From Candidatus Muproteobacteria bacterium RBG_16_65_34 (GTDB taxonomy: Bacteria; Pseudomonadota; Gammaproteobacteria; Acidiferrobacterales; Sulfurifustaceae), in the NCBI GenBank assembly GCA_001785115.1, contig MFSU01000076.1, forward strand, positions 1-60,621: DNA of 60,621 nt, read 5' to 3'. Positions within the stretch are counted from its first letter, which is position 1; every line of letters begins with the position of its first letter. A model generated the notes under the pieces. The model had not been told where the DNA came from. It ran no database searches and was given only the letters and a program-made list of their open reading frames with translations. This document shows positions 3,661 to 49,608 of this stretch, piece by piece. The translations under genes and the position numbers were made by a program.

Positions 3661-3728
3661 GAGGACTGAGGACTGAGGGCTGAGGACTCAGAGGTTCACC
3701 GTTCACGGATCACGAATCACGAGTCACG
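3661..3728. repeat. Two abutting tandem heptamer arrays: GAGGACT x4 (3661-3688) and NNTCACG x5 (3694-3728)
   Basis: Direct reading: gaggact gaggact gagggct gaggact, then gttcacc gttcacg gatcacg aatcacg agtcacg. Confidence 0.9.
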
Positions 3729-3731
3729 GCC

Positions 3732-4106
3732 TCACAAGTACCGGATCGCAAAATAATTGCACAGCAGGTGCATCGTGTTGTCGGTGACGATCACGAGCCA
3801 CACCGACAGCCACGCGGGGGTGCTGTCCGCGTAGCCGGTGTAGGTGTGGAAGTCGCGCCAGTGCCGGGGGTCGCCGGCCATGTTCTTGGCCATGGCGACG
3901 TAGTGCGCCAGCCGGTAGCGGTCGATTACCGCGTGGGTGCCGAAGATCACGGCGAGCGCCGCGGGCGAGAGCGTGATCAGGGTGAAGGGGAGCGAGTAGA
4001 CGAAGGCGTGCAGGATCGCGACCGGCCACGAGCGGATCTTGTTCTCCGCCATGTGGCTGGTCTGGAGGATGTAGTCTCCAACCAGGTGCGCGAGGATCTG
4101 TTCCAT
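3732..4106 (-). CDS. DUF3307-family membrane protein
   Basis: 124 aa. AHLVGDYILQTSHMA and HAVIDRY motifs match the family pattern as remembered. Confidence 0.6.
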   Translation of the reverse strand: MEQILAHLVGDYILQTSHMAENKIRSWPVAILHAFVYSLPFTLITLSPAALAVIFGTHAVIDRYRLAHYVAMAKNMAGDPRHWRDFHTYTGYADSTPAWLSVWLVIVTDNTMHLLCNYFAIRYL

Positions 4107-4157
4107 ATTATGGTTCGATTCTAGTCACACCTTCTCGGTTAGGCCATGTGAAAAAAG

Positions 4158-5081
4158 TCACAGGTCAGGCCGGCCCCGCGCCGCGAAGGCCTCGCGGTGC
4201 CCGGCCAACTGCTCCGCCGTAAGCAAAAATACGCTCTCATCCCCGCTCGTGGTGGTGAGCCAGGTGAACGGGACCTCGGGGAAGGCCTGTTGCAGGGTCT
4301 CGCTGCTGTTGCCGACCTCGGCCACCAGGATGCCGCCGGGATTGAGGTGTTCGGGCGCCCGCGCCAGGATGCGGGTAATTACGTCGAGGCCGCTCGCCCC
4401 GGCCGCGAGCGCAAGCGCCGGCTCGTGGCGGTACTCCGCGGGCAGGGTCTCAAGCTCCGGGGTGGCGACGTACGGCGGGTTGGTGGCGATCAGATCGTAG
4501 CGCTCGCCCGCGAGTTCATCGAACAGATCGGATTGGATCACGCGCACCCGCTCGCGCAGCCCGTGGCGCTCGACGTTGAGGCGTGCGACCGCGAGCGCCT
4601 CGGCCGAGATATCGGTCGCGTCCACGCGCGCCGCGGGAAAGGAATGCGCCAGCGCCACCGCGATGCAGCCGCTCCCGGTGCAGAGATCGAGTGCGCGCCG
4701 CACCATTCCGGGATCGACCCACGGCTCGAAGCGCTCCAGGATGAATTCGCCGATGAGCGAGCGCGGCACGATCGTGCGCTCATCCACGTAGAACTTAAGG
4801 CCCGCGAACCAGACCGCGTTCAATAGATACGCCAGCGGCTTGCGGCTGCGGATGCGCTCGGCAACCAGCGCATGAATTCGCTCGCGCTGGGCGGGCGTGG
4901 GTTCATCCCCGAGGCGATCATCGAGCTCCTGCGGCTCGCACCCGAGCGCCGCGCCCACGAGCCAGGCGGCCTCGTCGAGCGCGTTGTCCGTGCCGTGACC
5001 GAAATAAAGCCCGGCCTCGACGAACCGGTCCTCGGTCCATTCGACAAAATCGGCGACCGTGCGCGGTGGGAGGCTGTTCAA
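4158..5081 (-). CDS. prmB: 50S ribosomal protein L3 N5-glutamine methyltransferase
   Basis: 307 aa. SAM-binding LDLCTGSGCIA, the NPPY motif (TNPPYV), and a PrmB-type N-terminus (FVEAGLYFGHGTDNALDEAAWLV). Confidence 0.85.
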   Translation of the reverse strand: MNSLPPRTVADFVEWTEDRFVEAGLYFGHGTDNALDEAAWLVGAALGCEPQELDDRLGDEPTPAQRERIHALVAERIRSRKPLAYLLNAVWFAGLKFYVDERTIVPRSLIGEFILERFEPWVDPGMVRRALDLCTGSGCIAVALAHSFPAARVDATDISAEALAVARLNVERHGLRERVRVIQSDLFDELAGERYDLIATNPPYVATPELETLPAEYRHEPALALAAGASGLDVITRILARAPEHLNPGGILVAEVGNSSETLQQAFPEVPFTWLTTTSGDESVFLLTAEQLAGHREAFAARGRPDL

Positions 5082-5102
5082 AGGGAGCTAAGAATTAATG
5101 GA

Positions 5103-5341
5103 CAGGATTAACAGGATTTCTCAGGATTTACAGGATTAAACCTAAATAAGTTTAGAAGTGTTTTGGGTATTGCCTTGGAACTTATCCTTTTTTGCCACGG
5201 TACGTCCGTGCCGTCACCGATGCCATAAAAGCCACCCCAGAGCTTGCCTTCGTCCAAATGGAATCGTGCCGGATCAACAACAAGAATTTATGCTTTAATC
5301 CTGTTAATCCTGAGAAATCCTGAGAAATCCTGTAAATCCTG
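5103..5341. repeat. CAGGATT-family element with split arms: CAGGATT x4 (5103-5137) and AATCCTG x5 (5297-5341), separated by ~157 nt
   Basis: Unit spacing is 9-10 nt. The arms match those at 28203-28295 and 47047-47134. Confidence 0.85.
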
Positions 5342-5358
5342 TCTATTGCTGTCTATTT

Positions 5359-7588: not shown

Positions 7589-7599
7589 GATTGGTTTGT

Positions 7600-7703
7600 C
7601 GTGACTCGTGACTCGTGACTCGTGAGCGGTGAACGGTGAGTTGCAGGGGTTAGCTATCAGCTATCGGCTATCAGCCTGAACCCTGATCCCCGGCCCCTGG
7701 CCG
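7600..7703. repeat. Three consecutive heptamer arrays: CGTGACT-type x6 (7600-7641), AGCTATC x3.5 (7652-7676), CCTGNNC x4 (7676-7703)
   Basis: Direct reading. The reverse complement of the first array begins tcaccgttcac, as does the array at 3695. Confidence 0.9.
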
Positions 7704-9184: not shown

Positions 9185-9240
9185 GGTGTAGTAGCCGTCA
9201 GCGGTCCGCCTTCAGCCACCGGCTAAGGCCTGTCGCTTTA

Positions 9241-9268
9241 AGCTGATAGCTGAAGGCTGATCGCTACT
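9241..9268. repeat. Heptamer array AGCTGAT x4, the inverted counterpart of 7652-7676
   Basis: agctgat agctgaa ggctgat cgctact. A tandem of the reverse complement of AGCTATC contains AGCTGAT. Confidence 0.8.
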
Positions 9269-11855: not shown

Positions 11856-13295
11856 ATGAGCGAACATCACCTTACCGACAAGTCTTTTTCCAGCTTCGGT
11901 CTTCCGGACGTCCTGCTGAAGGGGGTGCAGGATGCCGGATTCGAATACTGTACTCCGATCCAGGCCGAAGCCCTGCCGCTGGCATTGGCCGGCCAGGACG
12001 TCGCCGGTCAGGCGCAGACCGGCACCGGCAAGACCGCGGCCTTCCTGCTCGCCGCCTTCAATCATCTCCTGAAGCATTCGGCGGAGGACATCCGCCCCAA
12101 CCAGCCGCGCGCCGTGATGCTGGCGCCCACGCGCGAGCTGGCGGTGCAGATCCACAAAGACGCAGTGCTCCTCGGCGCGCACACGGGTCTTCGCCTGGGG
12201 GTGGTCTTCGGCGGCACCGGGTACGACACCCAGCGCAAAATGCTGGAGGACGGCGTCGATGTGCTGATCGGCACGCCCGGGCGCCTGATCGACTATTTCA
12301 AGCAGCGGGTATTTGACCTCACGGCGGTGCAGGTGTTGGTGCTCGATGAGGCCGACCGCATGTTCGATCTCGGTTTCATCAAGGACATCCGGTTTGTCCT
12401 GCGGCGCATGCCCCCGCCCGCGGAGCGACTCAGCATGCTGTTCTCGGCCACGCTTTCCTATCGCGTGACCGAGCTCGCCTACGAGCACATGAATAACCCC
12501 CAGTTCGTGCGCATCGAGCCGGACAAGCGCACCGCCGACAAGGTGAGCCAGAGGCTCTACCACACCGCGGTCGAGGAGAAGATCCCGCTGCTCGTGGGGC
12601 TGCTGCGGCACATGGACCCCACGCGGAGCCTGGTGTTCATCAACACCAAGGACATGGCCGAGCGGGTGGCGGCCTGGTTGAAGACGAACGGCCTCAACGC
12701 CGCGGTGCTCTCGGGCGATGTGCCCCAGACCGTGCGGTTGCGGCTCCTGGCCGATTTCACCGAGGGGCGGTTGCCGATACTGGTGGCGACCGACGTCGCC
12801 GCGCGCGGTCTGCATATCCCGGATGTCTCGCACGTGTTCAACTTCGATCTGCCCCAGAACGCCGAGGACTACGTGCACCGCATCGGGCGCACCGCGCGCG
12901 CCGGGGCGAGCGGCGATGCCGTGAGTTTCGCCTGCGAGCGCCACGTCTTTTCCCTGCCCGAGATTGAGACCTATCTCGGCCACAAGATCCCAGTCGTCCA
13001 GGTGACGCCGGAACTGCTCCCGCCGCTCAAGCCGCCGCCCAGATCCGAGCGCACCGAGCACCGCGGCGAACGCGGCCGGCACCGCCGCGGCGAACGGAGA
13101 CCGGAAGGCGGGCGGCGCAGCGAGCGCAAGTGGGAAGGCGCGCGCCCCCACGCTGAAAAACCCGCCACCCCGCCCCCGCCCGCGGCGGCGACACCGAGAC
13201 CCCAGCCGCCGGCGCCCAAGCCGCAGACACTTGCACCCAAGCCCGACGTCAAGCCGCTCGCGCGGCGCGGCGACGATAAGCCGACGATCGGCTGA
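11856..13295 (+). CDS. rhlB: ATP-dependent DEAD-box RNA helicase RhlB-like with an Arg/Pro-rich C-terminal tail
   Basis: [12 protein letters not shown] (VLDEADRM), SAT and [10 protein letters not shown] motifs. Divergent from trxA-rho, as in enterobacterial synteny. Confidence 0.85.
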
Positions 13296-13961: not shown

Positions 13962-14159
13962 GCGACCGGTGGCGATCCGGTTCATTTTGCGGCAGGTATC
14001 GGCAGGCCACCGCTTGCGGTCATCCTGCCGCAGCGAGGTTTTCCTGCGCTACACTAGTAGCTTGTTGAAAAAGTCCTTCTATGGCCTTTTTCATCTCGAA
14101 CGGATCCACGTTCGCATTCGTGCTTACTGATACGGTTCCATCGTCAAGGGCGGTTACCC

Positions 14160-14453
14160 ATGAAGCGTGATGAGGTCATGAAAGTCCTTTCCGGGCACCG
14201 CGACGCATTGCACGAGCGGTTCGGCGTGAAATCGCTCGCGCTATTTGGTTCGGTGGCGCGCGATGAGGCAAGCGACACAAGCGATGTGGATCTGCTCGTG
14301 GAATTCGACCGCCCGACCGGTCTTTTCGGCCTTATTCAGTTGCAGCAGCATCTGGAGGCGTTGCTGAGTTGCAAGGTGGATGTCGGCACGGCGGCGGGAC
14401 TCAGGCCGCGCATACGCGAACGGGTGCTCCAAGAGGCGCTGCGTGTCGCCTAG
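14160..14453 (+). CDS. mntA: MNT-type nucleotidyltransferase antitoxin
   Basis: 97 aa with LFGSVARDEASDTSDVDLLVEF (GSxxRxxxxxxSDxD). Confidence 0.85.
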   Translation: MKRDEVMKVLSGHRDALHERFGVKSLALFGSVARDEASDTSDVDLLVEFDRPTGLFGLIQLQQHLEALLSCKVDVGTAAGLRPRIRERVLQEALRVA

Positions 14454-14787
14454 AAAGTGGCCGCGTCGCATCGAGGATATTCTCGATGCCGTGGAGGAGC
14501 TCCAATCGTTTGTGCGGGGACTCACTTACGGTGAGTTTTGCACCGATGCGAAAACCATCAAGGCAGTCGCTGCTGACCTGGCAATCATCGGCGAAGCCGC
14601 TGGGCACATTCCGGAGGACATCGTGTCTGCACACCCCGATATCCCTTGGCCGCTCATGAAAGCCATGCGCAACCGCATCGTGCACGTGTACTTTGATGTC
14701 GATCCCAGGATTATCTGGGACACCATTCAGCAAGATCTGCCTCCGCTGATCGAGCCGCTCAGGAAACTGCTGGAGGAAAACCGCTGA
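14443..14787 (+). CDS. hepT: HEPN-domain (DUF86) toxin
   Basis: GTG at 14443 overlaps the mntA stop by 11 nt. Rx4H motif RNRIVH. The ORF-track start at 14380 would overlap mntA by 74 nt. Confidence 0.8.
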   Translation: MSPRKWPRRIEDILDAVEELQSFVRGLTYGEFCTDAKTIKAVAADLAIIGEAAGHIPEDIVSAHPDIPWPLMKAMRNRIVHVYFDVDPRIIWDTIQQDLPPLIEPLRKLLEENR

Positions 14788-14843
14788 CTCCGGCTGCCGG
14801 TGCGGCGTATCTTGCGCGCGCGGGCGAGGAGCCCCAGAGGGAG

Positions 14844-16529
14844 GTGCAGCGGCGTACCGTGGAACGAGGTCTGCCCTCCGGGGCGGAGAAATTCATCCGG
14901 CCACGACCAAGGGGGAACCACTTACTTGACGTAAGCCACCGCTACAACGAACTAAGAAGGCTCACCGCCTACGACGACGGCGCCACCGCCGCCAGCTACG
15001 CCTACGATAACCTCCAGCGCAAGACCGAGGAGCGCCTAAACTACGGCCCCTTTGCCTTGAGCTACGCCTACAGCTACTACGCAAACGGCCAAAAGAAAAC
15101 CGTCACCGGCCCCGATGCCGTAAGCTACGCTTACACCTACGACCCGAACAACCAGCTCGCGAGCATCCAGCTCCCCGCGGGCAGCATCACCGTCAACGCC
15201 TACACCTGGACCGCCCCGGAGCGAATCACCCTCCCGGGCGGCACCACCCGCAGCCGCCAATACGACCCCCTGATGCGCTTAACCGCCCTCACCGCCAAGG
15301 ACGCCTTCCAGAATAGCCTCTTGAGCTACCAGTACGCCTATGACCGGGCCGGCAACATCACCCGAAAGGCCACCGAACACGGGACCTATGACTACGGCTA
15401 CGACCGCCTCTACCGCCTCAAGACCGCCGCCAACCCAGGCCCGCTGTCCCAGGAGGCCTACGGCTACGATGCCCTCGGCAACCGCACCACCGACAGCAAT
15501 CTCCCCGGCCCCTGGAGCTACGATGAAAACAACGCGCTCCGCGTCGCGGGCGCCGTTGCCTACGACTACGATGCAAACGGCAACGCCATAAAGAAAACCG
15601 CAGGCGCCCAAACGATGAGCCTCGGCTACGACACCAGCGACCGTCTGACCGAGGTGAAGGACGCCCAGGGCAACACCATCGGCCGCTACGCCTACGACCC
15701 CTTTGGGAGAAGGCTCTGGAAGGAAACCAACAACACCAGGACCTGGTTCTTCTACGCAGACGAAGGCCTGATCGGCGAATACGACTCAAGCGGTGCTGAG
15801 ACCAGGGCCTACGGCTACCAACCAGACTCAACCTGGGGCACCGATCCGCTCTTGCTCAAGCAAGGGAAGAACTACTACTTCTACCAGAACGATCATCTGG
15901 GGACGCCGCAGAAGCTCACCGACACTCAGGGTAATGTCGTTTGGAGTGCGAGGGCGCAGGCTTTTGGAGAGACTACGGTTGATGCCGGCTCCACGGTTAC
16001 GAACAACTTACGGTTTGCGGGCCAGTATTACGATGGGGAGAGTGGGTTGTACTATAACGGCGCGAGGTACTACGACCCGAAGCTCGGCAGATACACCAGT
16101 CACGACGGACTCAGTGTTGCGCGACACGTTCGACGCTGGCAAGCAACCCTCGGTATGCCAGGTCAACTACCGCTGGAGATCAACCCCTACGCGTATGTTG
16201 CGAACAACCCATTAAGGTGGATTGATCCGACTGGTACTAACATTTTTGGTTACTGCGGTTCGGGGCCGAGTCGATACGTCCTAGTTGATGGAAGGTTTGC
16301 TGCCGCCTGTGAAAATCATGATCGTTGCTATCTCCAGTGTCGTGCCAACAAGAGCAAGTGCGATCAGACCTTCTGGAATGAGATGAATGCGGTCTGCGAT
16401 CAGATGCCAACAGGCCGAGATAAAGAGTTATGTTATTTGCGCGCTGAAAATTTTTTTACCGCTGTAGTTTGGTTCGGAGATGGGGAATTTCAGGAAGCCC
16501 AAGCAGCGGCAGATTGCTGCAAAAGATGA
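14844..16529 (+). CDS. 5'-truncated RHS/YD-repeat protein carrying a C-terminal phospholipase-A2-like toxin domain (16239-16526)
   Basis: Many YD repeats (YAYDxxGN, YDYGYDRLYRL). RHS core end: RFAGQYYDGESGLYYNGARYYDPKLGRYTS...NNPLRWIDPTGT. The tail has CENHDRCY...CDQTFWNEMNAVC...AENFFTAVVWFG. No N-terminal or secretion domain; only ~465 aa of shell. Confidence 0.75.
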   Translation: MQRRTVERGLPSGAEKFIRPRPRGNHLLDVSHRYNELRRLTAYDDGATAASYAYDNLQRKTEERLNYGPFALSYAYSYYANGQKKTVTGPDAVSYAYTYDPNNQLASIQLPAGSITVNAYTWTAPERITLPGGTTRSRQYDPLMRLTALTAKDAFQNSLLSYQYAYDRAGNITRKATEHGTYDYGYDRLYRLKTAANPGPLSQEAYGYDALGNRTTDSNLPGPWSYDENNALRVAGAVAYDYDANGNAIKKTAGAQTMSLGYDTSDRLTEVKDAQGNTIGRYAYDPFGRRLWKETNNTRTWFFYADEGLIGEYDSSGAETRAYGYQPDSTWGTDPLLLKQGKNYYFYQNDHLGTPQKLTDTQGNVVWSARAQAFGETTVDAGSTVTNNLRFAGQYYDGESGLYYNGARYYDPKLGRYTSHDGLSVARHVRRWQATLGMPGQLPLEINPYAYVANNPLRWIDPTGTNIFGYCGSGPSRYVLVDGRFAAACENHDRCYLQCRANKSKCDQTFWNEMNAVCDQMPTGRDKELCYLRAENFFTAVVWFGDGEFQEAQAAADCCKR

Positions 16530-16562
16530 GGCTGTTCCAGGCGCCGCACTTGATAGAATGGT

Positions 16563-16949
16563 TTGCCGAGGTTACAAATGGAAATTTCAGAGGAGATTAT
16601 TTTTGCGCTGCTGATGTCATACGCAGTTGTGATAGCTGTTGTCTGCCACTTTCTAACTAAAAACTACTTATTCGCAAGCACCGCGGCATCAGTTTTTGTA
16701 CCATTGAGTGTTCAGATAGGCGATTACGTTATTCGTGGCTATATGGACCCGTTCGCTATTTTTGCCTTTCCAGCCGCAGTCTTGTACTGCTTTTTCCTTG
16801 CTCTAGTTGTTGGGATACCTTTTGCAATTATTAGAAAATGGAGAGGCGAGAGAATACTTTTCCCGATATATCGCACGAAACAGGGGGAAGATTTGTTGCC
16901 GAAAACTGCCAGGCGAAAGAAATCCAAAAGAAAAGACGGAAAAAGGTGA
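16563..16949 (+). CDS. Small membrane protein, putative cognate immunity protein
   Basis: 128 aa, AT-rich. About 3 hydrophobic helices and a Lys-rich tail. Lies directly downstream of the RHS toxin tip. Start uncertain (16563 or 16578). Confidence 0.5.
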   Translation: MPRLQMEISEEIIFALLMSYAVVIAVVCHFLTKNYLFASTAASVFVPLSVQIGDYVIRGYMDPFAIFAFPAAVLYCFFLALVVGIPFAIIRKWRGERILFPIYRTKQGEDLLPKTARRKKSKRKDGKR

Positions 16950-17066
16950 TCGCGGTAGGAACGCTCATCGCTGAACGCCCCCCGCACAGATCCGAACGGG
17001 CCCGATTCGGGCATTCGGCTCCCACCTTGTAACGAATAGGGGACGGAGGGATTAAAGATTAGACAG

Positions 17067-17206
17067 GGAAAAAGGTGACAGATTTATTTTCTAGAAAGCA
17101 AACAGGAAAGCAAGCAAAGATATTCTCCCAATGCCACGGGAAAAATGCGCGACCATGAATCATGAATGAGCAGTGGAGGACGTAGGACAGTTAACGGCGA
17201 ACGAAC
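17067..17206. repeat. 140-bp direct repeat, copy 1 (138/140 identical to 18808-18947)
   Basis: Direct alignment; the mismatches are at gcgcgAcc/gcgcgGcc and gacgTagg/gacgCagg. Confidence 0.9.
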
Positions 17207-17272
17207 AGCGAATAGGGGACGGAGGGATTAAAGATTAGGCAGTGATTCCAAAAGCGAGAAAAGGGGTCGGAG

Positions 17273-18789: not shown

Positions 18790-18807
18790 GGTCGGGAGTC
18801 GCTTTAT

Positions 18808-18947
18808 GAAAAAGGTGACAGATTTATTTTCTAGAAAGCAAACAGGAAAGCAAGCAAAGATATTCTCCCAATGCCACGGGAAAAATGCGCGGCCATGAAT
18901 CATGAATGAGCAGTGGAGGACGCAGGACAGTTAACGGCGAACGAACA
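18808..18947. repeat. 140-bp direct repeat, copy 2
   Basis: See 17067-17206. Confidence 0.9.
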
Positions 18948-19012
18948 AGAACCGAAGAATGAACAACAAGCAGCACCACCAGAAGCGGAGGGTTATCAGT
19001 ATCCCGGGCGTG

Positions 19013-34865: not shown

Positions 34866-34872
34866 AAAAAGC

Positions 34873-34937
34873 GTGAGGAGTCAGGGGTGAGGAGCGAAAG
34901 GCACATAACGATTTTACCCCTCACACCTCACCCCTCA
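34873..34937. repeat. Hairpin of heptamers: GTGAGGA-type x4 / CCCCTCA-type x3
   Basis: gtgagga gtcaggg gtgagga gcgaaag ... cccctca cacctca cccctca. Confidence 0.9.
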
Positions 34938-34942
34938 CGCGG

Positions 34943-36289: not shown

Positions 36290-36300
36290 ATGATTTTTGG

Positions 36301-36352
36301 AACGCAGATAAACACAGATGCGATTACCGAAAAAACAGCGCTAATCTGCGTC
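36301..36352. repeat. AACGCAGAT-family short hairpin (2 decamers / 1 inverted unit)
   Basis: aacgcagata aacacagatg ... aatctgcgtc. Confidence 0.7.
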
Positions 36353-36807: not shown

Positions 36808-36829
36808 TTTTACTCCTTTAAAACTGCGT

Positions 36830-36910
36830 AACCGCAGATGAACACGGATAAACGCAGATAAAAATCAAAACAGATTCGGCTTTTTCAATAATCTGCGTTT
36901 ATCTGCGGTT
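36830..36910. repeat. AACGCAGAT-family hairpin: decamers x3 / inverted decamers x2
   Basis: aaccgcagat gaacacggat aaacgcagat ... atctgcgttt atctgcggtt. Abuts the aroQ stop. Confidence 0.9.
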
Positions 36911-38109: not shown

Positions 38110-38123
38110 GAGTGGCTCATAAA

Positions 38124-38210
38124 CGGTGAACAGTGATCCGTGAACCGGGAACAATAGGCGGCTGTGTTTTCGGTTTACCGATCACCGATTACCGTTCACT
38201 GTTCACGGCT
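38124..38210. repeat. GTGA-family hairpin of heptamers: CGGTGAA-type x4 / (T/C)ACCGAT, CACTGTT-type x5
   Basis: cggtgaa cagtgat ccgtgaa ccgggaa ... taccgat caccgat taccgtt cactgtt cacggct. Confidence 0.9.
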
Positions 38211-40489
38211 TAAACTTTGCGCAGTAACGCGAGAAATTCCTCGGCCGCGCGAAACCCGTACGTGCGCAGCGCCCGCTGCTCCACGCCGCTCGGGCCAAAG
38301 AACAGCAGCGCCGGCGGGCCGTATACGCCGAAGCGGCCCTTGATGGCCTTGACCTCGGGGTCGGCGGGATTGGTGACGTCGACCTGAAGCCGCACGAAGC
38401 GGCCTTCCAGATCTGCGCGCACGCGCGCATCGGCAAAAGTCGCTTTCTCCATGCGCAGGCAATCGGTGCACCAGTCGGCATAGTAATCGAGGATCGCCGG
38501 TTTGCCCGCGGCTTTGGCCTCGGCCAGGCGCGTCTCGAGCTCGCGCAGGGTTTTCACGCGCGTGAACAGGCGCTCCGCGGCCGCGGGCGTCGCCGGCGCG
38601 CCGATGCTCAGCCCCCCGCCCGATACGCCGATGGGCAGCGGACTCAAAATATCGCGGTTGCCGGCAAGCCCCCCGAGCAGCGCGATCACGCCCCAGGCGA
38701 GCAGTAAAGTCCCGAAGCCCTTCGAGAGGGTGCGCCAGCCGCTCGCGCCGTGGGGCAGACTCTCGGTCGCGCCCAGATAGATCGCCGAGACGATAAAGAG
38801 CGCCGCCCAGGCGAGCAGCACCGGCACCTGGGGGATGAAGCCCAGGAGATAGATTGCGACCGCAATGAGCAGCACACCGAACACGTGCTTGGTGCGCTCC
38901 ATCCAGGGTCCCGCGCGCGGCAACAGGAACCCGGCGCCGACGCCGATCGCGATCAGGATCGCACCCATGCCGAGGGCCATGGAGAACATGATCGCGCCGC
39001 CCAGGTAGGGATCGCGGCTGGCGATGGCCGCGCCGAGGGCGGAGATGATGAGCGGCGAGACGCAGGCGCCGACGATCAGCGCCGCGAACAGTCCCACCAG
39101 GAACACCCCGAAGAACACCCCGCCGCGGAAGCGCTTGGAATGATGGTGCAGGCGGCTGGAGTGGTGATGCAGGAACGACTGGATGAAGGCCGGTATGTGC
39201 AGCTCATAGAACCCGAACATGGAGAACGCCAGGGCCACGAACAGCGCGCTGAAGATCCCGATGATCCAGGGGTTCTGGAAGTAGGCCTGCAGCTGCTCGC
39301 CGGTGGCGCCGGCGATCGCGCCGGCCGCGGTATAGGTCACTGCGGTGCCGAGGACGTAGCTCGCCGAGAGCAGACCCCCGCGCAGCTTGGTGATTTTCCC
39401 GTTGCTCGCGCCCACGATCACGCTGGAAAGGATCGGGATCATGGGCAACACGCAGGGCGTGAAGGTCAGCAGCAGCCCGGTGCCGAAGGCGGCGAGCATG
39501 GCGAGCAGAAAGGTTCCGGCGTCCACGCGTGCGCGCAGCGTGTCGCCCGCCTCGGGCGCGAACGGCGGCGCGGCCGGGGTATCGACGGTGAGCGCGCCGG
39601 CCCTCAAGCGCAGCGGGAAGGTCTTCGTGCTCGGCGGATAGCAGATCGCCACCGGCGTCTCGGCGCAACCCTGATAAGTCATTCTGAGTGCGAGATCGGC
39701 GGTCTTGCCGGCGGCGCCTTCGAGCGCAAGGCGCATCTCGAAGCTCCCGGTATAGACCTCGGTCTTGCCGATGAACTCATCGGTCTTTTCCTTGCCCGGC
39801 GGGAGCGTGTAGGCGCCGAGCCGCACGCCCGCGGGCGGCGCTCCGTCCGCGCGGGCAAGCTCGAAGCGGGTCTTGTCGCGGTAGAGGTAACAGCAGTCGG
39901 CGACCGTCACGCGCACGCGCAGCGCGGCGCCGCCTTCGGGCATCACACCCACGCCGAACGCGAGCTCCGGGTCCATGACCTCCTGCTCTGTGCCGGCGGA
40001 AGTAAGAACATCTTTCAGCGAGCGCGCGGGCGCGGCGGCTATTGCCGCGGCGGCTTTGGGCGCCGGGAGGTTGAAGACGACTTCCTTTACGATCGGCGGG
40101 TAACACACACCGATAGGCTCGTTGCAGCCCTGGAACGTGATCTTGAGGCGCGCCGCGCCGGCCCCGGCGCGGTCGATCGGCAGACGCACCCGAACGGACT
40201 TGGTGTAGGTCTCGACGCGCCCGAAAAGCGGGTCGTCTTTTTGCTTGCCGCCCGGGAATACCGGGCTCCCGAGCGCAACGCCGCCATCCAGCGCCTCGAA
40301 CTTGATCTTGTCCCGGTACAGGTAATAACCGGGCGCGATGTTCCAATTCGCCTCGAGCGTGTTGCCATCGAGCACCCGTGTCGTGAGCGCGAAGGCCTTG
40401 TCCGGCTCAAGCAGCTCTTCCTCCTGTGCCGTGGCGACTGCCGGCATGAGGAGCAGCACGGCGAGGAGCAGGGCGGGCGGTCGCATCAT
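38210..40489 (-). CDS. dsbD: Thiol:disulfide interchange protein DsbD with two tandem N-terminal (alpha-type) domains
   Basis: Start MMRPPALLLAVLL (overlaps the cutA stop). QGCNEPIGVCYPP and QGCAETPVAICYPP segments, TM core with TFTPCVLPMIP, and a C-terminal thioredoxin fold with WCTDC. About 759 aa. Confidence 0.85.
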   Translation of the reverse strand: MMRPPALLLAVLLLMPAVATAQEEELLEPDKAFALTTRVLDGNTLEANWNIAPGYYLYRDKIKFEALDGGVALGSPVFPGGKQKDDPLFGRVETYTKSVRVRLPIDRAGAGAARLKITFQGCNEPIGVCYPPIVKEVVFNLPAPKAAAAIAAAPARSLKDVLTSAGTEQEVMDPELAFGVGVMPEGGAALRVRVTVADCCYLYRDKTRFELARADGAPPAGVRLGAYTLPPGKEKTDEFIGKTEVYTGSFEMRLALEGAAGKTADLALRMTYQGCAETPVAICYPPSTKTFPLRLRAGALTVDTPAAPPFAPEAGDTLRARVDAGTFLLAMLAAFGTGLLLTFTPCVLPMIPILSSVIVGASNGKITKLRGGLLSASYVLGTAVTYTAAGAIAGATGEQLQAYFQNPWIIGIFSALFVALAFSMFGFYELHIPAFIQSFLHHHSSRLHHHSKRFRGGVFFGVFLVGLFAALIVGACVSPLIISALGAAIASRDPYLGGAIMFSMALGMGAILIAIGVGAGFLLPRAGPWMERTKHVFGVLLIAVAIYLLGFIPQVPVLLAWAALFIVSAIYLGATESLPHGASGWRTLSKGFGTLLLAWGVIALLGGLAGNRDILSPLPIGVSGGGLSIGAPATPAAAERLFTRVKTLRELETRLAEAKAAGKPAILDYYADWCTDCLRMEKATFADARVRADLEGRFVRLQVDVTNPADPEVKAIKGRFGVYGPPALLFFGPSGVEQRALRTYGFRAAEEFLALLRKV

Positions 40490-43241: not shown

Positions 43242-43267
43242 GCCGCCCCGCTTTCTCGCAATAACCG

Positions 43268-43297
43268 AAAGGCCCCGGAAACGGGGCCTTTCTTTAT
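43268..43297 (+). terminator. Rho-independent terminator after groEL
   Basis: aaaggccccg-gaaa-cggggccttt followed by ctttat. Confidence 0.8.
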
Positions 43298-44121: not shown

Positions 44122-47046
44122 ATGGAAGCCGGCGAAAACAGATTCACGGATGCGCTCGCGCAGATCCCGCTCAGCCTGCGTGCCCTGGCGGAAGACGACG
44201 CGCGGCAGGTCGGCGCGCAGCTTTCGGACCTTGGCGCAATGGCCGTGCCCGGCGGCGACTGGGTCGCCGCGCTGCCCCGTGTGTTTGTTGCGAGCGAGTT
44301 CGTCACGCGCACCTGCGTGCAGCACCCGGAGGTGCTGCGCGAGCTGATCGAGTCGCGCGACCTGCTCCGCGCCTACGCCGCCGGCGAGCTCGGCCGGCGC
44401 ATCGAGCGCGAGCTCGCCGGTGTGCCGGACGAACCCGCGCTCAAGAGCCGCCTGCGCCTGCTGCGCCGGCGCGAAATGCTGCGCCTCGCGTTCCGCGATC
44501 TCGCCGGCTGGGCCGATCTCGACGAGGTCGTGACGGCGGCCACGGAGCTCGCCGACGCCTGTCTCGCGGCGGCGCTCGAGCACCTTAACCTCTGGGCCAC
44601 GGCGCGCCACGGCGCGCCTGTGGGCGTCGGCGGCGCGCCGGCCGCGATGGTAGTGCTGGGGCTCGGAAAGCTCGGGGGGCGGGAGCTTAACTTCTCCTCA
44701 GACATCGACCTCGTCTTCGCCTACACCGAGGAGGGTGAGACCGCGCGCGGCCTGAGCAACCACGAGTTCTTCGTGCGGCTCGGCCAGTCGCTCATCAACG
44801 CGCTCAACGAGGCCACCGCCGAGGGCTTCGTGTTTCGCGTGGACATGCGCCTGCGGCCCAACGGCGCGAGCGGGCCGCTCGCGCTCTCCTTCGACGCCCT
44901 GGAGCACTACTACCAGACCCACGGGCGCGAGTGGGAGCGCTATGCGCTCATCAAGGCGCGCGTCTGTGCCGGCAGCCGCGCCGCGGGCGAGGAGCTGCGC
45001 GCGCGCCTCAAGCCGTTTGTCTTTCGCAAGTACCTCGATTACGGGACGCTCGAGGGCATCCGCGCGATGAAGTCCATGATCGCGCGCGAGGTGGAGCGCA
45101 AGGGGATGCAGGGCAACATCAAGCTCGGCCCCGGCGGCATACGCGAGATCGAGTTCCTGGCGCAGGCGCTCCAGCTCATCCGCGGCGGGCGCGAGCCGCA
45201 GCTCCAGGAGCCGGCGCTGCTCAAGGTGTTGCCGCGGCTCGCCGCCGCCGGGCACATCGGCCGGGAGGAAGAGCGCGAGCTCGCCGCGGCCTATGTGTTC
45301 CTGCGCAACGTCGAGCACCGGCTGCAAATGGCGGACGACCGCCAGACGCAGCAACTGCCTTCGGACGAGCGCGAGCGGCTGCGGCTCGCCTTCGCCGCCG
45401 GGTTCGCCGACTGGGCGACGTTCGAGGCCGCGCTCGCGCGCCACCGCCACCGGGTGCAGGAGCTGTTCGCGGGCATGTTCGCGCCGCCGCCGGGCGCGGC
45501 GCAGCCGCAGGCCGCAGACGCCCTCGGCGCCGTCTGGCCCGGCCCGCCGGACGCAGACGCGGCCCAGCAGGCGCTGCGCCGGGCCGGATACCCGGAGCCC
45601 GCGGCCGCGCTCGCGCTGCTCGAGGGGTTGCGCTCGGGCCCGGCCTACGGCGCCTTCTCCGCGGAGGGCAAGGCGCGCATGGACCGGCTCGTGCCGCTCA
45701 TGCTCGCGGCCGCGGGCGCGAGCCCCGATCCCCAGACCACGCTCGCGCGCCTCGTGAACCTGCTCGAGGCCATCGGGCGGCGCTCGGCCTATCTCGCGCT
45801 GCTCATCGAAAATCCCATGGCGCTCGCGCAGCTCGTGAAGCTCCTCGGCGCGAGCCCGTGGATCGCCGGTTGGGTCGCGCAACATCCGATCGTGCTCGAT
45901 GAGCTGCTCGATCCGCGCAGCCTGTACGAGCCGCTCACGCACGCGCGATTGACGGACGAGCTGCGCCAGTGCCTGGCGCATATCCCGGCCGAAGACCTCG
46001 AGCTCCAGATGGAGGTGCTGCGCGAGTTCCGGCATTCGCACGTGCTGCGCGTCGCGGCGGCCGCGATCGCCGGCGGCGCGGGCGCGCCCAACGGCGCCGG
46101 CCCGGGGCTCGCGCCGGAGCAGGTCGGCGCGCACCTCGCGTGGATCGCGGAGGCGGCGATCGAGGAAAGCCTCGACCTCGTGCGCCGCGCCCTCATCGTG
46201 CGGCACGGCGCGCCGCGCTGCCCCGATGGTGCGCGGCCGGGGTTCGTCGTCGTCGGCTACGGCAAGCTCGGGGGGCTCGAGCTCGGTTACGCCTCCGATC
46301 TCGACATGATCTTCATCTATGAAGGCTGCGAGGACGGCGCGACCGAGGGCGCGCGCAGCCTGCCGAACGAGACCTTCTTCGCCCGACTCGGCCAGCGGCT
46401 GATCCACGTGCTCACCACGCGCACGCCGGGCGGCATCCTTTATGAAGTGGACATGCGGCTGCGGCCCTCCGGCAAGTCCGGGCCGCTGGTCACGAGCCTC
46501 GAGGCCTTCCGCGCGTACCAGCAGACGCACGCCTGGACCTGGGAGCACCAGGCGCTGGTGCGCGCCCGCGCCGTGGCCGGCGACCCCGGCTTGCGGCGCG
46601 GGTTCGAGGAGGTGCGGCGCGCGGTCCTGTGCCAGGCGCGCGACCCGGCGCGGCTCAAGCGTGAGGTCCTGGAGATGCGCGCGAAGATGGCGCAGGCCCA
46701 CGGCGCGGGCGACCCCGTGCGCTTCGACCTCAAGCACGATGCGGGCGGTATCGTCGATATCGAATTTATGGTGCAATACGGGGTCTTGAGGTGGGCGCAC
46801 GAACACCCCGTGCTTGCCCGCCATACGGACAACATCCAGTTACTCGAGGCCCTGGCCGCGGCCGGCCGGCTCAACGCCGGGCAGGCGCAGACCCTGGCCG
46901 AGGCCTACCGCCGTTACCTCTCCCTGGAGCACCGCACCCGGCTGATGGAGCGCGGATCCCAGGTGGATCGCGCGGAGCTCGGCGATTTACCGGAGCGGGT
47001 GCGGCGGATCTGGGATGAAGTGTTTGAAAAAGGCGAAGGCGAATAG
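44122..47046 (+). CDS. glnE: Bifunctional glutamine synthetase adenylyltransferase / adenylyl-removing enzyme
   Basis: About 974 aa from MEAGENRF. Two nucleotidyltransferase repeats (GKLGGRELNFSSDIDLVF and GKLGGLELGYASDLDMIF). Confidence 0.9.
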   Translation: MEAGENRFTDALAQIPLSLRALAEDDARQVGAQLSDLGAMAVPGGDWVAALPRVFVASEFVTRTCVQHPEVLRELIESRDLLRAYAAGELGRRIERELAGVPDEPALKSRLRLLRRREMLRLAFRDLAGWADLDEVVTAATELADACLAAALEHLNLWATARHGAPVGVGGAPAAMVVLGLGKLGGRELNFSSDIDLVFAYTEEGETARGLSNHEFFVRLGQSLINALNEATAEGFVFRVDMRLRPNGASGPLALSFDALEHYYQTHGREWERYALIKARVCAGSRAAGEELRARLKPFVFRKYLDYGTLEGIRAMKSMIAREVERKGMQGNIKLGPGGIREIEFLAQALQLIRGGREPQLQEPALLKVLPRLAAAGHIGREEERELAAAYVFLRNVEHRLQMADDRQTQQLPSDERERLRLAFAAGFADWATFEAALARHRHRVQELFAGMFAPPPGAAQPQAADALGAVWPGPPDADAAQQALRRAGYPEPAAALALLEGLRSGPAYGAFSAEGKARMDRLVPLMLAAAGASPDPQTTLARLVNLLEAIGRRSAYLALLIENPMALAQLVKLLGASPWIAGWVAQHPIVLDELLDPRSLYEPLTHARLTDELRQCLAHIPAEDLELQMEVLREFRHSHVLRVAAAAIAGGAGAPNGAGPGLAPEQVGAHLAWIAEAAIEESLDLVRRALIVRHGAPRCPDGARPGFVVVGYGKLGGLELGYASDLDMIFIYEGCEDGATEGARSLPNETFFARLGQRLIHVLTTRTPGGILYEVDMRLRPSGKSGPLVTSLEAFRAYQQTHAWTWEHQALVRARAVAGDPGLRRGFEEVRRAVLCQARDPARLKREVLEMRAKMAQAHGAGDPVRFDLKHDAGGIVDIEFMVQYGVLRWAHEHPVLARHTDNIQLLEALAAAGRLNAGQAQTLAEAYRRYLSLEHRTRLMERGSQVDRAELGDLPERVRRIWDEVFEKGEGE

Positions 47047-47134
47047 ACAGGATTAACAGGATTAAAAACAGGATTAACAGGATTAAGGCTTTTAAGAATT
47101 AATCCTGTGAATCCTGAAAAATCCTGTTAATCCT
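47047..47134. repeat. CAGGATT-family hairpin, followed by a T7 run (probable glnE terminator)
   Basis: CAGGATT x4 / AATCCTG x4, then gaattcctttttttgg. Confidence 0.9.
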
Positions 47135-47162
47135 GTGAATTCCTTTTTTTGGAGAAAGCTCG

Positions 47163-48086: not shown

Positions 48087-48094
48087 GGCGACCA

Positions 48095-48189
48095 GGGACG
48101 AGATACGAGATACGAGGGACGAGGGGCAACGTCTTTTATGAACAAGTGCCTTATCCACATTCCCTCGCACCTCGCACCTCGCCCCTCGT
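48095..48189. repeat. Hairpin of heptamers: GGGACGA/GATACGA x5 / NCCTCGC x4
   Basis: gggacga gatacga gatacga gggacga ggggcaa ... ccctcgc acctcgc acctcgc ccctcgt. Confidence 0.9.
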
Positions 48190-48215
48190 ATCTATTTTCC
48201 TGAAGGAATCCGACA

Positions 48216-48422
48216 ATGGTCCACACCAGCACTGAGCAACCGAAGGGACTCCCCGCCAACGCGGAGAACCGCTACGAGGTCACACACGCGGATTTGCCGC
48301 TCTCCTGCCCGATGCCGGGCATGGTGCGGTGGAACTCGCACCCGCGAGTTTATTTGCCGATCGAGAAGAGCGGCGAGGAGCGTTGTATGTATTGCGGGGC
48401 GGTGTACGTGCTTAAAGACTAA
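48216..48422 (+). CDS. Small zinc-finger (zf-CHCC-like) protein
   Basis: 68 aa. LSCP...RCMYCG cysteine pairs. Position upstream of waaF. Confidence 0.55.
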   Translation: MVHTSTEQPKGLPANAENRYEVTHADLPLSCPMPGMVRWNSHPRVYLPIEKSGEERCMYCGAVYVLKD

Positions 48423-48432
48423 GATGATTAAC

Positions 48433-48491
48433 CACAGAGGACACAGAGTTTGTAAAGACCAAGATCCTCTGTGCCCTCTGTGATCTCCGTG
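48433..48491. repeat. CACAGAG-family hairpin: CACAGAG x2 / CTCTGTG x2 + CTCCGTG
   Basis: 9-nt period. Overlaps the ORF-track start of waaF. Confidence 0.9.
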
Positions 48492-49556
48492 GTGAAAGAG
48501 CGCATTAGATTTTTGATCGTCGGCCCGTCCTGGGTCGGCGACATGGTGCTGGCGCAGAGCCTGTTCCGGCTGCTCAAACAGCGCCACCCCGAATGTCGTA
48601 TCGACGTGCTGGCGCCCGAATGGACGTTTCCCCTGTTGGCGCGCATGCCGGAGGTGGCCGAGGCGATCCCGGCGCCGTTTCGCCACGGCGCGCTCGCGTT
48701 GGCGAAGCGCTGGCGTCTCGGGCGGGCGTTGCGCGCGCGAAACTACGACCGCGCGATCGTGCTGCCGAACTCGCTCAAGTCGGCGATCGTCCCGTTCGCC
48801 GCGCGCGCCCGCGTGCGCACCGGCTTCGTCGGCGAGCTGCGCTACGGGCTGCTCAACGACGCGCGCCGCCTCGATAAGACCGAACTCCCGCGCACCGTGG
48901 ACCGGTTCGTGGCGCTCGGAATCGAGTCGGGCGAGGCGTTGCCGGAGATTCCCCAACCGTGGCTCGAGGCGGATGCGGACAGCGCTCGCGCCGCGCTTGT
49001 GCGCCTCGGCCGCGGCCTTCCGAAAACTCCGGTGCTCGGTTTGTGCCCCGGCGCCGAGTACGGTCCCGCCAAGCGCTGGCCGGCGGAATATTTTGCCGAC
49101 GTCGCCAGGACGAAACTCGCAGAAGGCTGGGAGGTGTGGCTGTTCGGTTCGGACCAGGACGCGCCCGTGACCCTTGCGATTCAATCCCTGACCCAGGGGG
49201 GCTGCCTCGACCTCGGCGGCAAGACCGCGCTTGCCGAGGCGATCGATCTGATGTCGCTGACAACCGCCGTCGTGACCAACGATTCCGGGCTCATGCACGT
49301 CGCGGCCGCGCTCGGGCGCCGCGTCGTCGCGATTTACGGGTCTTCGGATCCCGGCCACACGCCGCCCTTGAGCGACAAGGCCACCATGCGCTATCTCGGC
49401 CTATCGTGTAGCCCGTGTTTCCAACGCGAGTGTCCGCTGGGGCATCTCAGGTGCCTTCGCGATATCGCCCCGGGTCTTGTGCTTGAGAGTTTGTCGGAGG
49501 CAAGTGGTAAGATGCCCGAGAAAAGAGCAAAGGACAAAGAGAAAAGGGAAGGATAA
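48489..49556 (+). CDS. waaF: ADP-heptose:LPS heptosyltransferase II
   Basis: RFLIVGPSWVGDMVLAQSLF, VLPNSLKSA and VTNDSGLMHVAAA motifs. A GTG start at 48489/48492 is preferred over 48471, which lies in the repeat. Confidence 0.85.
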   Translation: MVKERIRFLIVGPSWVGDMVLAQSLFRLLKQRHPECRIDVLAPEWTFPLLARMPEVAEAIPAPFRHGALALAKRWRLGRALRARNYDRAIVLPNSLKSAIVPFAARARVRTGFVGELRYGLLNDARRLDKTELPRTVDRFVALGIESGEALPEIPQPWLEADADSARAALVRLGRGLPKTPVLGLCPGAEYGPAKRWPAEYFADVARTKLAEGWEVWLFGSDQDAPVTLAIQSLTQGGCLDLGGKTALAEAIDLMSLTTAVVTNDSGLMHVAAALGRRVVAIYGSSDPGHTPPLSDKATMRYLGLSCSPCFQRECPLGHLRCLRDIAPGLVLESLSEASGKMPEKRAKDKEKREG

Positions 49557-49608
49557 GCACGGCGCGCCGAAGACTTTTCTCTTCTCTCTTTTCTCTTTGC
49601 ACTTTTCT
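49518..49608. repeat. Hairpin of heptamers: GAGAAAA-type x5 / CTTTTCT-type x5; the left arm lies inside the waaF 3' end
   Basis: gagaaaa gagcaaa ggacaaa gagaaaa gggaagg ... cttttct cttctct cttttct ctttgca cttttct. Confidence 0.9.

Follow-up and report, generated by a model that had tools for sequence, protein, structure and literature searches.

Short tandem heptamer repeats between genes have been known in cyanobacteria since 1990 and were later found in Xanthomonas and Geobacter. The cyanobacterial short tandemly repeated repetitive (STRR) sequences STRR1-3, ascribed to Mazel and co-workers in 1990, are said to consist of the units CCCCAGT, TTGGTCA and CAACAGT. Here we analyze a contig of Candidatus Muproteobacteria bacterium RBG_16_65_34 (MFSU01000076.1, positions 1 to 60,621, 60,621 nt, referred to as the window throughout), in which nearly all spacers between genes carry tandem arrays of 7-10-nt units, mostly facing a reverse-complementary array across a loop. 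These elements are not categorically new; they are notable for their density, the number of their families, the cross-phylum sharing of two families and their turnover at the strain level.

Equivalent elements have been described in two other groups of proteobacteria, and the original prediction, which knew of no such equivalent, has to be corrected in this respect. In Xanthomonas, arrays of the heptamer GGGAATC form 70-75 convergent inverted pairs with stem-loop potential (Rehm et al. 2015, PMC4692102). These arrays mostly contain about 4 units, lie in intergenic DNA between co-directional open reading frames (ORFs), and most of the repeats are transcribed (PMC4692102). The purine-rich array is found on the coding strand at most 50 bp past a stop codon or overlapping it, its complement at most 50 bp before the next ORF, and the number of units varies among species while the single or paired type is kept (PMC4692102). 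In Geobacter metallireducens, sites of classes 1-3 consist of 3-5 tandem 7-9-nt units, mostly paired on opposite strands at variable distance, with 24, 21 and 8 pairs per class (Aklujkar et al. 2009, PMC2700814). They are found within operons, for example in the proB-proA interval, and G. sulfurreducens lacks them; the authors took them for binding sites of IHF/HU-type global regulators and documented them as supplementary alignments only (PMC2700814). STRR hairpins between the cyanobacterial genes hupS and hupL were proposed to stabilize transcripts or to couple translation (PMC2670836). The TAACTGA repeats of Beggiatoaceae precede start codons and are almost all direct; of 170 sets, one is inverted (MacGregor 2015, PMC4679880). 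As summarized in the latter paper, Mrazek et al. 2007 found heptanucleotide units to be the commonest long simple sequence repeats (SSRs) in most genomes and proposed polymerase slippage.

Arrays were identified with Tandem Repeats Finder (period 7-11, at least 2.8 copies) in region 3600-49700 of the window. All arrays that had been listed in the original prediction were recovered at the coordinates given there, plus a few more. The region contains 30 arrays with 2.8-5.4 copies each and periods of 7-10. Within the 5,978 nt of intergenic DNA left by a gene map based on GC3 we counted 24 arrays; shuffling these segments 200 times with dinucleotide composition preserved gave 0.08 ± 0.27 arrays, and 1 at most. 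Once over-long ORF starts were corrected from gene calls on near-identical contigs, five of six 'coding' arrays were reassigned and 29 of the 30 were intergenic; the only truly coding one is a weak array (64% match) inside glnE. Altogether 18-19 intergenic sites carry tandem arrays of 7-10-nt units between 3661 and 49610, close to the 20 or so first proposed. At 0.49/kb, the window ranks first in array density when compared with 80 purH loci from other Gammaproteobacteria, which have a median of 0. That repeats are generally fragile when metagenomes are assembled from short reads is the only point in favor of chance low complexity or an assembly artefact as the source of the arrays, and the excess over shuffled DNA, together with homologues in finished isolate replicons, speaks against it. 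Identical arrays were found in the independent assemblies L084, L085, L086, L213 and L214. Contigs that are identical or 99% identical to the window occur in the metagenome assemblies ENA ERZ27254809, ERZ27254791 and ERZ4902961, in JGI 3300025326 and in an ANAN16-1 bioreactor sample. Because they are identical across independent assemblies (ENA, JGI, NCBI), the arrays are not assembly artefacts; this explanation is already refuted, and its probability is practically nil. The intergenic arrays and their hairpins are confirmed as genuine.

A complementary local partner was detected by inverted-repeat search at 13-14 sites, which agrees with the proposal that most arrays are paired; the loops range from 12 to 164 nt, more widely than the 16-75 nt given before. 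The folding energies of 12 elements lie below those of shuffles (z = -2.6 to -13.2). Three sites carry the CAGGATT family. The minus-strand element 28197-28301 has 4+4 units in 42-nt arms (28197-28238/28260-28301) that are 93% complementary (z = -13.2); its terminal AATAG provides the purD stop codon through the TAG of the element itself, the purE ATG follows 4 nt past the 3' arm, and an orthologous copy exists in Sulfuricaulis (locus L089, see below). On the plus strand, element 47041-47142 (arms 47041-47063/47120-47142) also has 4+4 units (z = -12.9), and here the TAG of AATAG serves as the glnE stop codon. The third copy, 5097-5357 on the minus strand, adjoins the mdh stop codon with a gap of 1 nt and consists of arms 5102-5137 (ACAGGATTn x4) and 5297-5342 (AATCCTGnn x5), a loop of 159 nt and a tail of CTGTCTATTG x2. 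The three copies agree in unit order, in 2-3-2 nt spacers and in their ends (AATAG followed by ACAGGATT at one side, AATCCTGT at the other), and a 37-nt identical 3' arm is common to the 28197 and 47041 elements. Pairing of the stem in several registers had been suggested from the tandem structure of the arms, which is real; the spacers within an arm are unequal, and alternative-register pairing is therefore limited.

A second family is defined by the decamer arm AACCGCAGAT-GAACRCRGAT-AAACGCRGAT, present at four window sites, all on the minus strand. In the fis-purH spacer, the decamers AACCGCAGAT/GAACGCAGAT/AAACGCGGAT (31322-31353) stand opposite TCTGCGT-type units (about 31405-31440); this inner element (31322-31440) is nested within an outer minus-strand pair (31282-31490) of CGGAATK x3 (31282-31302) and ATTCCGM x3.4 (31467-31490). 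A solo decamer array, ATCTGCGGTn x3.7 (that is, AACCGCAGAT on the sense strand), lies at 33932-33968, 12 nt past the prmA stop codon. Between accB and accC a decayed CGCAGAT/CACAGAT copy (36296-36350, z = -2.6) was found, with fuller orthologues in the related loci L087 and L089, and the aroQ-accB spacer contains the element AACCGCAGAT GAACACGGAT AAACGCAGAT / ATCTGCGTTT ATCTGCGGTT (36829-36910, z = -4.7) with an orthologue in L087.

Other units build the remaining paired elements. An AGTTCAA x3.6 / TTGAACT-type x3.7 hairpin (24963-25027, arms 24963-24987/25003-25027, z = -5.6) separates the convergent band7 and hyp189 genes. On the minus strand are found CACAGAGnn x3 / CTCTGTGnn x3 between yrdC and hemF (27013-27122, arms 27013-27047/27088-27122, z = -7.8), CGCAAAG(n) x3-4 / CTTTGCG(n) x3 between purH and purD (29585-29700, arms 29585-29622/29663-29700, z = -6.2), CGCCAAGA x3 / CTTGGCG x2 at 33769-33927, where flanking arms ATCCTAAAAA.../...TTTTTCTAGGAT extend the stem (z = -3.8), GTGAGGn x3 / CCTCACn x3 between accC and prmA (34871-34940, arms 34871-34899/34912-34940, z = -7.6), and GGTGAAC/CGGTGAT-type x4-5 between dsbD and a redoxin gene (38120-38212, arms 38120-38150/38182-38212, z = -4.3). 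The plus strand carries an imperfect hairpin of GGGACGA/GATACGA x5 and CCTCGCn x3.7, 3 nt past an ilvE-like stop codon (48090-48193, arms 48101-48127/48167-48193, z = -3.5), and a GAGAAAA-type x4.7 / CTTTTCT x5.3 hairpin (49518-49610, arms 49518-49550/49577-49609, z = -3.9) with the next ORF 7 nt past its 3' arm. The diversity of at least 12 unit types is as predicted; part of them are one-mismatch neighbors (CGCAGAG, CACAGAG, CGCAAAG, CGCCAAG, CGCAGAT).

Whole arms thus recur at several sites of the window, and also in relatives and across phyla, which contradicts the implication that each site has a unit sequence of its own. Judged from these recurrences, which within 46 kb of one window amount to three CAGGATT copies and four copies of the decamer family, the arms are copies of dispersed repeat families and not site-specific inventions. 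This bears on a purely in-situ origin, in which slippage would expand motifs in pre-existing palindromes and intrastrand template switching would copy them to the other arm, with neither mobility nor function. A two-unit (14-nt) indel between near-identical strains, the frequently unequal unit numbers of the two arms, the series of one-mismatch units and the heptanucleotide SSRs attributed to slippage by Mrazek et al. 2007 (in the summary of PMC4679880) are all consistent with it. However, the same order of variant units and the same unequal spacers occur at non-homologous sites of one genome and in different phyla, members of a family have loop sequence in common, and slippage would even out the spacers, which remain 2-3-2. 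The data already point to copy-and-paste descent, with derived variants in common between copies at different loci. We consider an exclusively local origin very unlikely.

To follow the families beyond the lineage, metagenome contigs were scanned for the exact pattern of three AATCCTG units. At least 120 contigs with GC contents of 0.22-0.71 matched, a few of the matches being coding or eukaryote-like low-complexity DNA. Among the 44 two-arm CAGGATT elements listed, 40 are from metagenome contigs; their ends are the same ([AT]-rich-T[ATG]G followed by ACAGGATT), and their loops of 8-160 nt are mutually unrelated. Other families begin at a stop codon and have no common tag. Further array families recurring among these contigs are CGCAGAG, CACAGAG, CACGGAT, GCAAAGG, CACAAAAAGG and TTTGGTC. 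The CAGGATT arm with the same 2-3-2 spacing is present in four places on plasmid pTs485 of Candidatus Thiodictyon syntrophicum (Chromatiaceae), and a CAGGATT element occurs on a plasmid of Spirosoma oryzicola (Bacteroidota). The decamer family (CGCAGATGAA/CACAGATAAA) is found in Thiodictyon and, as a solo tandem array, on an Anabaena cylindrica plasmid, which lends substance to the analogy with cyanobacterial STRR sequences drawn in the original prediction. Four elements built alike but from other units were found in a Thiobacillus locus (L073), and a search of 5,426 complete E. coli genomes gave zero matches. The density of the window is not general, since only about 3 such arrays were counted along 50 kb of pTs485. 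The phenomenon is sporadic, yet it spans phyla. In three metagenome loci (L092 4574-4733, L116 4465-4640, L188 9481-9589) we observed longer arrays of 7-16 copies with the pyrimidine-rich arm first, for example (TTTGGTC)11 - 16 nt - (CCAAAGA)9; we take this TTTGGTC-type unit to resemble the cyanobacterial STRR2 unit TTGGTCA.

The elements of the window resemble the Xanthomonas GGGAATC arrays in their tandem heptamers, inverted pairing, placement between stop and start codons and purine-first arrangement. Xanthomonas has one dominant unit, which was read as G-quadruplex-forming, whereas 12 or more unit types with periods of 7-10 occur in the window, the majority not capable of forming G-quadruplexes, at a density of 18 sites in 46 kb compared with about 185 per Xanthomonas genome. 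Class 3 of G. metallireducens (MTYCTGA) corresponds to the CAGGAT unit of the window; its families are fewer, and ISGme8/9 lie at a fixed distance from its class 1 sites (PMC2700814), while nothing comparable was seen in the window. Short intergenic tandem heptamer arrays, some of them intercistronic hairpins, with sporadic cross-phylum spread are common to the window, STRR and TAACTGA repeats, and the sporadic distribution of the latter two suggests horizontal spread. The window differs in having 8-10-nt units as well, in inverted pairing as the rule, unlike TAACTGA arrays, and in its host: STRR sequences are found in heterocystous or filamentous cyanobacteria, while the closest named relatives of the window are Sulfuricaulis and Candidatus Muproteobacteria. 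No tandem CCCCAGT, TTGGTCA or CAACAGT (the STRR1-3 units) or TAACTGA was found in the window.

The main rival explanation is that the units are binding sites of abundant DNA- or single-strand-binding proteins such as nucleoid-associated proteins or global regulators, with one site per unit and with inversion reflecting protein assembly. The CAGGAT(T) core is kept in Gammaproteobacteria, Bacteroidota and Geobacter class 3 (PMC2700814) with varying spacers, solo arrays occur, and Aklujkar et al. proposed regulators of the IHF/HU type (PMC2700814). All decamer copies of the window have CGCAGAT and those of L087 and L089 CAC[AG]GAT, a lineage-wide shift that would be expected for co-evolving sites. 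Nevertheless, many proteins would be needed to serve the 12 or more unit types of these 46 kb, and periods of 7-10 bp are out of helical phase. In relatives, orthologous sites are empty or carry another family, and families are exchanged even between 99%-identical strains, which is hard to square with site-specific regulation of housekeeping operons; the related locus L088 has the same operons without any arrays. We rate protein binding as the origin of the arrays as rather unlikely. DnaA boxes, Pho boxes, Fis/IHF sites, Tn7/IS21-type multi-site transposon ends and integron attC sites were compared by eye and rejected for misfits in sequence or spacing.

Three fully syntenic loci were found through PurD homologues: L087 (84% identical), L088 (82%) and L089, a Sulfuricaulis sp. 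(80%). Twelve orthologous spacers were aligned. An element is present in L087 in nearly every spacer that is occupied in the window, in L089 in fewer, and in none of the short spacers of L088. The aroQ-accB spacer has about 104 nt with a decamer element in the window and L087, compared with 11-12 nt and no element in L088 and L089. Between dsbD and the redoxin gene the element exists in the window only, the spacers of L087, L088 and L089 being empty (23-33 nt). At accB-accC, the window, L087 and L089 all have an element of one family, and its loops resemble each other (GAAAAGYCG...TTGAnnTTTT). In the purD-purE spacer, CAGGATT is found in the window and L089, where the 3' arm is clearly homologous, and a CGCCAAG element in L087. 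L089 also carries CAGGATT between yrdC and hemF. Alignment of orthologous spacers had been proposed to reveal varying copy number or register with hairpin potential kept; unit number does vary, but some spacers are empty or hold a different family in relatives. Decay can affect one arm only: L089 purD-purE and L213 yrdC-hemF each retain just one good arm. In the L089 yrdC-hemF spacer (12448-12664) the CAGGATT arms enclose an inverted repeat beginning with TAGAACCTATCTCAAAAATGGC, which in turn encloses a GTAG-type repetitive extragenic palindromic (REP) sequence beginning with GTAGGTTGGGGTGAGG; from these three nested palindromes it follows that classical REPs coexist with array elements and that loops accept insertions. 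An expansion in situ of an ancestral CGGAAT palindrome upstream of purH was considered for the fis-purH element; the relatives have only irregular CGGAAT-like motifs upstream of purH and give no clear case. In L088 (ENA ERZ25039502 contig_59700), accC, DUF3426, purH and NfeD are each called in two pieces, suggesting frameshift errors of assembly, and this locus should be taken with caution as an 'empty' reference.

Changes were also found between near-identical strains. L213 and L214 are contigs with 98.7-99.8% identity to the window, and most elements are unchanged in them (purD-purE, purH-purD, fis-purH, prmA-DUF3426); three differ. In the hyp189-band7 element, the 5' arm (in hyp189 sense) has six units in L213 compared with four in the window, the 14-nt indel mentioned above, while the 3' arm is the same. 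The yrdC-hemF spacer carries CAGGATT in L213 and CACAGAG in the window, and the first ~40 nt of hemF are unusually diverged. In the accC-prmA spacer, a GAGAAAA-type element in L214 takes the place of the equal-length GTGAGG-type element of the window, and the first ~70 nt of prmA are diverged. The diverged tracts (26949-26990 at the 5' end of hemF and 34794-34865 at the 5' end of prmA) look like recombination end-points or repair-associated mutation, the remainder of each gene being more than 99.5% identical. This pattern suggests that alternative spacer alleles move by homologous recombination.

As to their placement, 13 of the 16 elements between co-directional genes begin at most 12 nt from the upstream stop codon or overlap it, so that the described position directly against stop codons holds. 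The distance from the end of an element to the next start is mostly 4-22 nt (median ~10-15 nt). The start codons of purE (28192), prmA (34865) and heptosyltransferase 2 (49618) lie 4-7 nt past a pyrimidine-rich 3' arm, and no Shine-Dalgarno sequence is visible outside the hairpin for these three genes, which suggests that their initiation depends on the structure of the element or on coupling. The preceding heptosyltransferase ORF (48471-49556) extends 39 nt into the 5' arm of the 49518 element; its last ~12 residues (EKRAKDKEKREG) are encoded by the array, and its stop codon lies just beyond the arm, where the loop begins.

The arms have a fixed order. The purine-rich (mainly A-rich) arm is 5' and the T-rich arm 3' in 16 of 16 automatically paired arrays of the window, L087, L089 and L073 (purine fraction 0.56-0.96). 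Elsewhere this polarity is strong but not absolute, with ~12 purine-first and 5 pyrimidine-first non-CAGGATT pairs. Because an inverted repeat reads alike on both strands, polarity is a property of the element and not of the chosen strand. A speculative route in which a double-strand break receives templated repeats at its two 3' ends was considered, as it would explain both the inverted arrays and the polarity; the variant order inherited across loci argues to the contrary. In 25 array-bearing spacers, the sense RNA folds better than the antisense RNA in 11 cases and worse in 14, with a mean difference of 0.03 kcal/mol (Wilcoxon p = 0.54, a small sample with limited power). Such strand symmetry is as expected for inverted repeats at the DNA level.

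These data bear on the possibility that the elements are selected intercistronic RNA hairpins, acting as partial terminators, 3'-end stabilizers, RNase III processing sites or translational couplers, and that their grouping in families is secondary. In favor of it, hairpin stability is very high (z down to -13), the elements occupy the interval that opens at the stop codon and closes shortly before the following start, and purE and prmA have no Shine-Dalgarno sequence outside the 3' arm. The proposals for the hupS-hupL STRR (PMC2670836) and the transcription of most Xanthomonas repeats (PMC4692102) point in the same direction. Against a selected RNA structure, there is no sense-strand folding advantage and G.U-dependent pairing is equally frequent antisense; U-tracts are lacking, and no Rfam family matches the elements. 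The same operons work free of elements in L088 and partly in L089, and decay is asymmetric. We regard a primary RNA function as unlikely. No whole element fits the intrinsic terminator consensus of a G+C-rich stem, a 3-8-nt loop and a T-run. Weak terminator-like sub-stems of 5-6 bp occur inside three elements (~31325, 33779-33916 and 36893), and a T-run adjoins the 47041-47142 element only. The groEL terminator (43267-43292; 11-bp stem with 8 GC pairs, GAAA loop, T-run) is the sole strong canonical one in 24-43.5 kb, and its presence implies that the organism uses ordinary terminators besides array hairpins. At gathering thresholds no Rfam family matched an element, and at E <= 1 only sub-threshold chance matches to miRNA hairpin models were obtained. 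A ZTP riboswitch upstream of purH was considered and was not found by the Rfam searches. CsrA sites were considered as well: ACAGGAUG resembles the CsrA consensus, but other families have no GGA and the motif is buried in the stem (by eye).

Non-autonomous palindromic repeats of a REP- or MITE-like kind would account best for the data. The window elements share with REPs, bacterial interspersed mosaic elements (BIMEs) and REP doublets forming hairpins (REPINs) that they are extragenic multicopy imperfect palindromes arranged as inverted doublets, with several families, no target-site duplication, a location near stop codons, and nesting or clustering. REPs have a GTAG or CGTC tetranucleotide tag at one end (Di Nocera et al. 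2013, PMC3733652). The window elements lack this tag, their arms are tandem arrays where REPs are single 20-40-nt palindromes, as the original prediction had stressed, and their families cross phylum boundaries, which REP families do not. With MITEs, or miniature inverted-repeat transposable elements, they have in common a non-coding length of 60-260 nt, long terminal inverted repeats, dispersal, an intra-operon position and nesting. MITE interiors are usually conserved, whereas CAGGATT loops are mutually unrelated, and no target-site duplication accompanies CAGGATT copies. CRISPR arrays consist of 23-50-nt direct repeats with unique spacers; here the units of 7-10 nt are contiguous, the arrays are inverted and unique spacers are absent, so that CRISPR was rightly dismissed at the outset. 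The elements thus lack the STRR sequences and host range, the REP tag, the target duplication of MITEs and all features of CRISPR and intrinsic terminators. We place them with the known, unnamed kind represented by the paired arrays of Xanthomonas and Geobacter because every defining feature tested was found: arrays, an inverted partner, stop/start placement and multicopy families.

The explanation we favor, which in our estimate stands at about an even chance, is that the elements are dispersed non-autonomous palindromic repeats, REP/BIME- or MITE-like, whose arms are tandem arrays of 7-10-nt units, of the same kind as those of Xanthomonas and Geobacter and the STRR sequences. It fits best because of the dispersed families with conserved ends, presence and absence at orthologous sites, replacement, nesting, strand symmetry and confinement to spacers. 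Copies would be made in trans by an enzyme encoded elsewhere and would settle in the interval that separates a stop codon from the start that follows. In these spacers they would be gained, lost, replaced by other families or nested in loops, in a turnover much faster than the divergence of the flanking genes, and the number of units would change by slippage. The elements would be transcribed within operon mRNAs, where a stem of 25-42 bp might fold the insert away and bring the upstream stop beside the downstream start, and coupled expression would survive. Elements would then be tolerated inside aroQ-accB-accC and purD-purE because folding joins the stop codon and the next start.

Several observations weigh against dispersed palindromic repeats. 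Pfam scans of ~65 window ORFs revealed no RAYT/Y1_Tnp transposase, and the sole transposase is an IS4-like DDE enzyme in an unrelated island. All-against-all BLASTP of 1,843 ORFs from 80 array-bearing metagenome loci revealed no recurrent neighbor gene, the maximum being 4 of 80 loci. In L134, where six CAGGATT elements are clustered, Pfam gave no match of interest for the neighboring ORFs. No target-site duplication is visible in the 44 two-arm CAGGATT copies. No fresh insertion or transposition event was caught in the strain comparison, and both replacements, with 40-70 nt of diverged flanking coding DNA, fit recombination of old alleles as well as insertion. The folding that would preserve coupled expression is deduced from geometry. 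Finally, a 7-nt core kept across phyla with varying spacers is unusual for REPs or MITEs and would fit a protein-binding motif. Y1_Tnp genes beside arrays were also lacking in the 80 metagenome loci, and no autonomous insertion sequence with the same terminal repeats was detected in a non-exhaustive search of the window and of 450 kb from contigs with arrays. The flanks of CAGGATT copies are A/T-rich and inverted-symmetric and are not direct repeats; a flanking TA is frequent and inconsistent.

The 4-5 sites without a local partner include 3661-3728, 7599-7675, the solo decamer array 33932-33968 and part of 19437-19570. At 3661-3728, two neighboring, mutually non-complementary arrays, GAGGACT x4 (3661-3688) and TCACGAA x3.7 (3703-3728), were found, and at 7599-7675 three arrays in succession, TCGTGAC x3.9, GTGAGCG x2.7 and AGCTATC x3.4. 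The element at 9200-9265 is an imperfect hairpin with 25-nt arms that are 80% complementary; its 3' arm (AGCTGAT/AGCTGAA/GGCTGAT) also complements the AGCTATC array 7652-7675 across the M48 peptidase gene. The AGCTATC x3.4 array (7652-7675) and the AGCTGAT-type units (9241-9265) flank this gene, and the complementary arrays TCACGAA x3.7 (3703-3728) and TCGTGAC x3.9 (7599-7625), 3.9 kb apart, flank DUF3307, prmC-like methyltransferase, mdh and malic enzyme genes; for both pairs, split elements and chance are possible. The degenerate element 19437-19570 contains GGACAAAAA x2, GCAGCAA-like units and ACTTGCA x5.4, and only 2 nt separate its end from the T2SSE ATPase stop codon.

The window has a GC content of ~65%. 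Pfam scans identified, in order and as a partial list, the core housekeeping genes rho, trxA, DEAD-box helicase, hemF, purE, purD, purH, fis, dusB, prmA, accC, accB, aroQ, dsbD, groES/EL, glnE and lipopolysaccharide-core glycosyltransferases. Its PurD is 80-84% identical to proteins of Sulfuricaulis sp., Candidatus Muproteobacteria and a 'Gammaproteobacteria bacterium', and its PurH is at most 74-78% identical to those of the species representatives scanned. We read the organism as an uncultured, Acidiferrobacterales-like gammaproteobacterium that resembles sulfur oxidizers. Low-GC tracts form the two ends and the stretch 14-19.5 kb. In the left one of these ends, minus-strand ORF 534-1925 (463 aa) has a Shedu SduA C-terminal domain (PF14082, E = 3.7e-21), an anti-phage defence gene. 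A low-GC island (~14100-19500) is inserted after the ARD dioxygenase gene and before the T2SSE/aldolase genes; another gene set separates ARD from aldolase in L087. Within the island are an MNT/HepT toxin-antitoxin pair (14160-14787), an RHS-repeat protein whose C-terminus is PLA2-like (14844-16529), a fragment of a group II intron domain on the minus strand (16949-17023; RF00029, 42.9 bits), which is the only Rfam match in the window at gathering thresholds, the IS4-like DDE transposase (17391-18779) and a perfect 25-nt inverted repeat that is not array-built (19014-19038/19093-19117).

The findings have practical consequences. Operon annotation is affected because start and stop codons lie in or against the arms. 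Metagenome contigs often start or stop in or beside arrays (L214 at position 1; also L102, L118, L147 and L162), which suggests that arrays break short-read assemblies; the elements may accordingly affect metagenome assembly, L214 beginning inside one.

For the biology of these organisms, the new points are that the spacers of core operons can be saturated with such elements, that many unit families exist in one genome and that at least two families cross phyla. Strains that are ~99% identical differ structurally above all in these elements. Scattered reports are tied into one phenomenon, for which culturable hosts exist in Thiodictyon syntrophicum Cad16T, Xanthomonas and G. metallireducens. 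It is conceivable, if rather improbable, that STRR, the Xanthomonas arrays, Geobacter classes 1-3, CAGGATT and CGCAGAT form a cross-phylum superfamily of modular palindromes, with 7-10-nt units that would be read, copied and spread by a horizontally mobile trans-acting machinery distinct from RAYT/REP and from MITEs derived from insertion sequences. If this were true, the fixed polarity and the fast replacement of families would be signatures of that mechanism.

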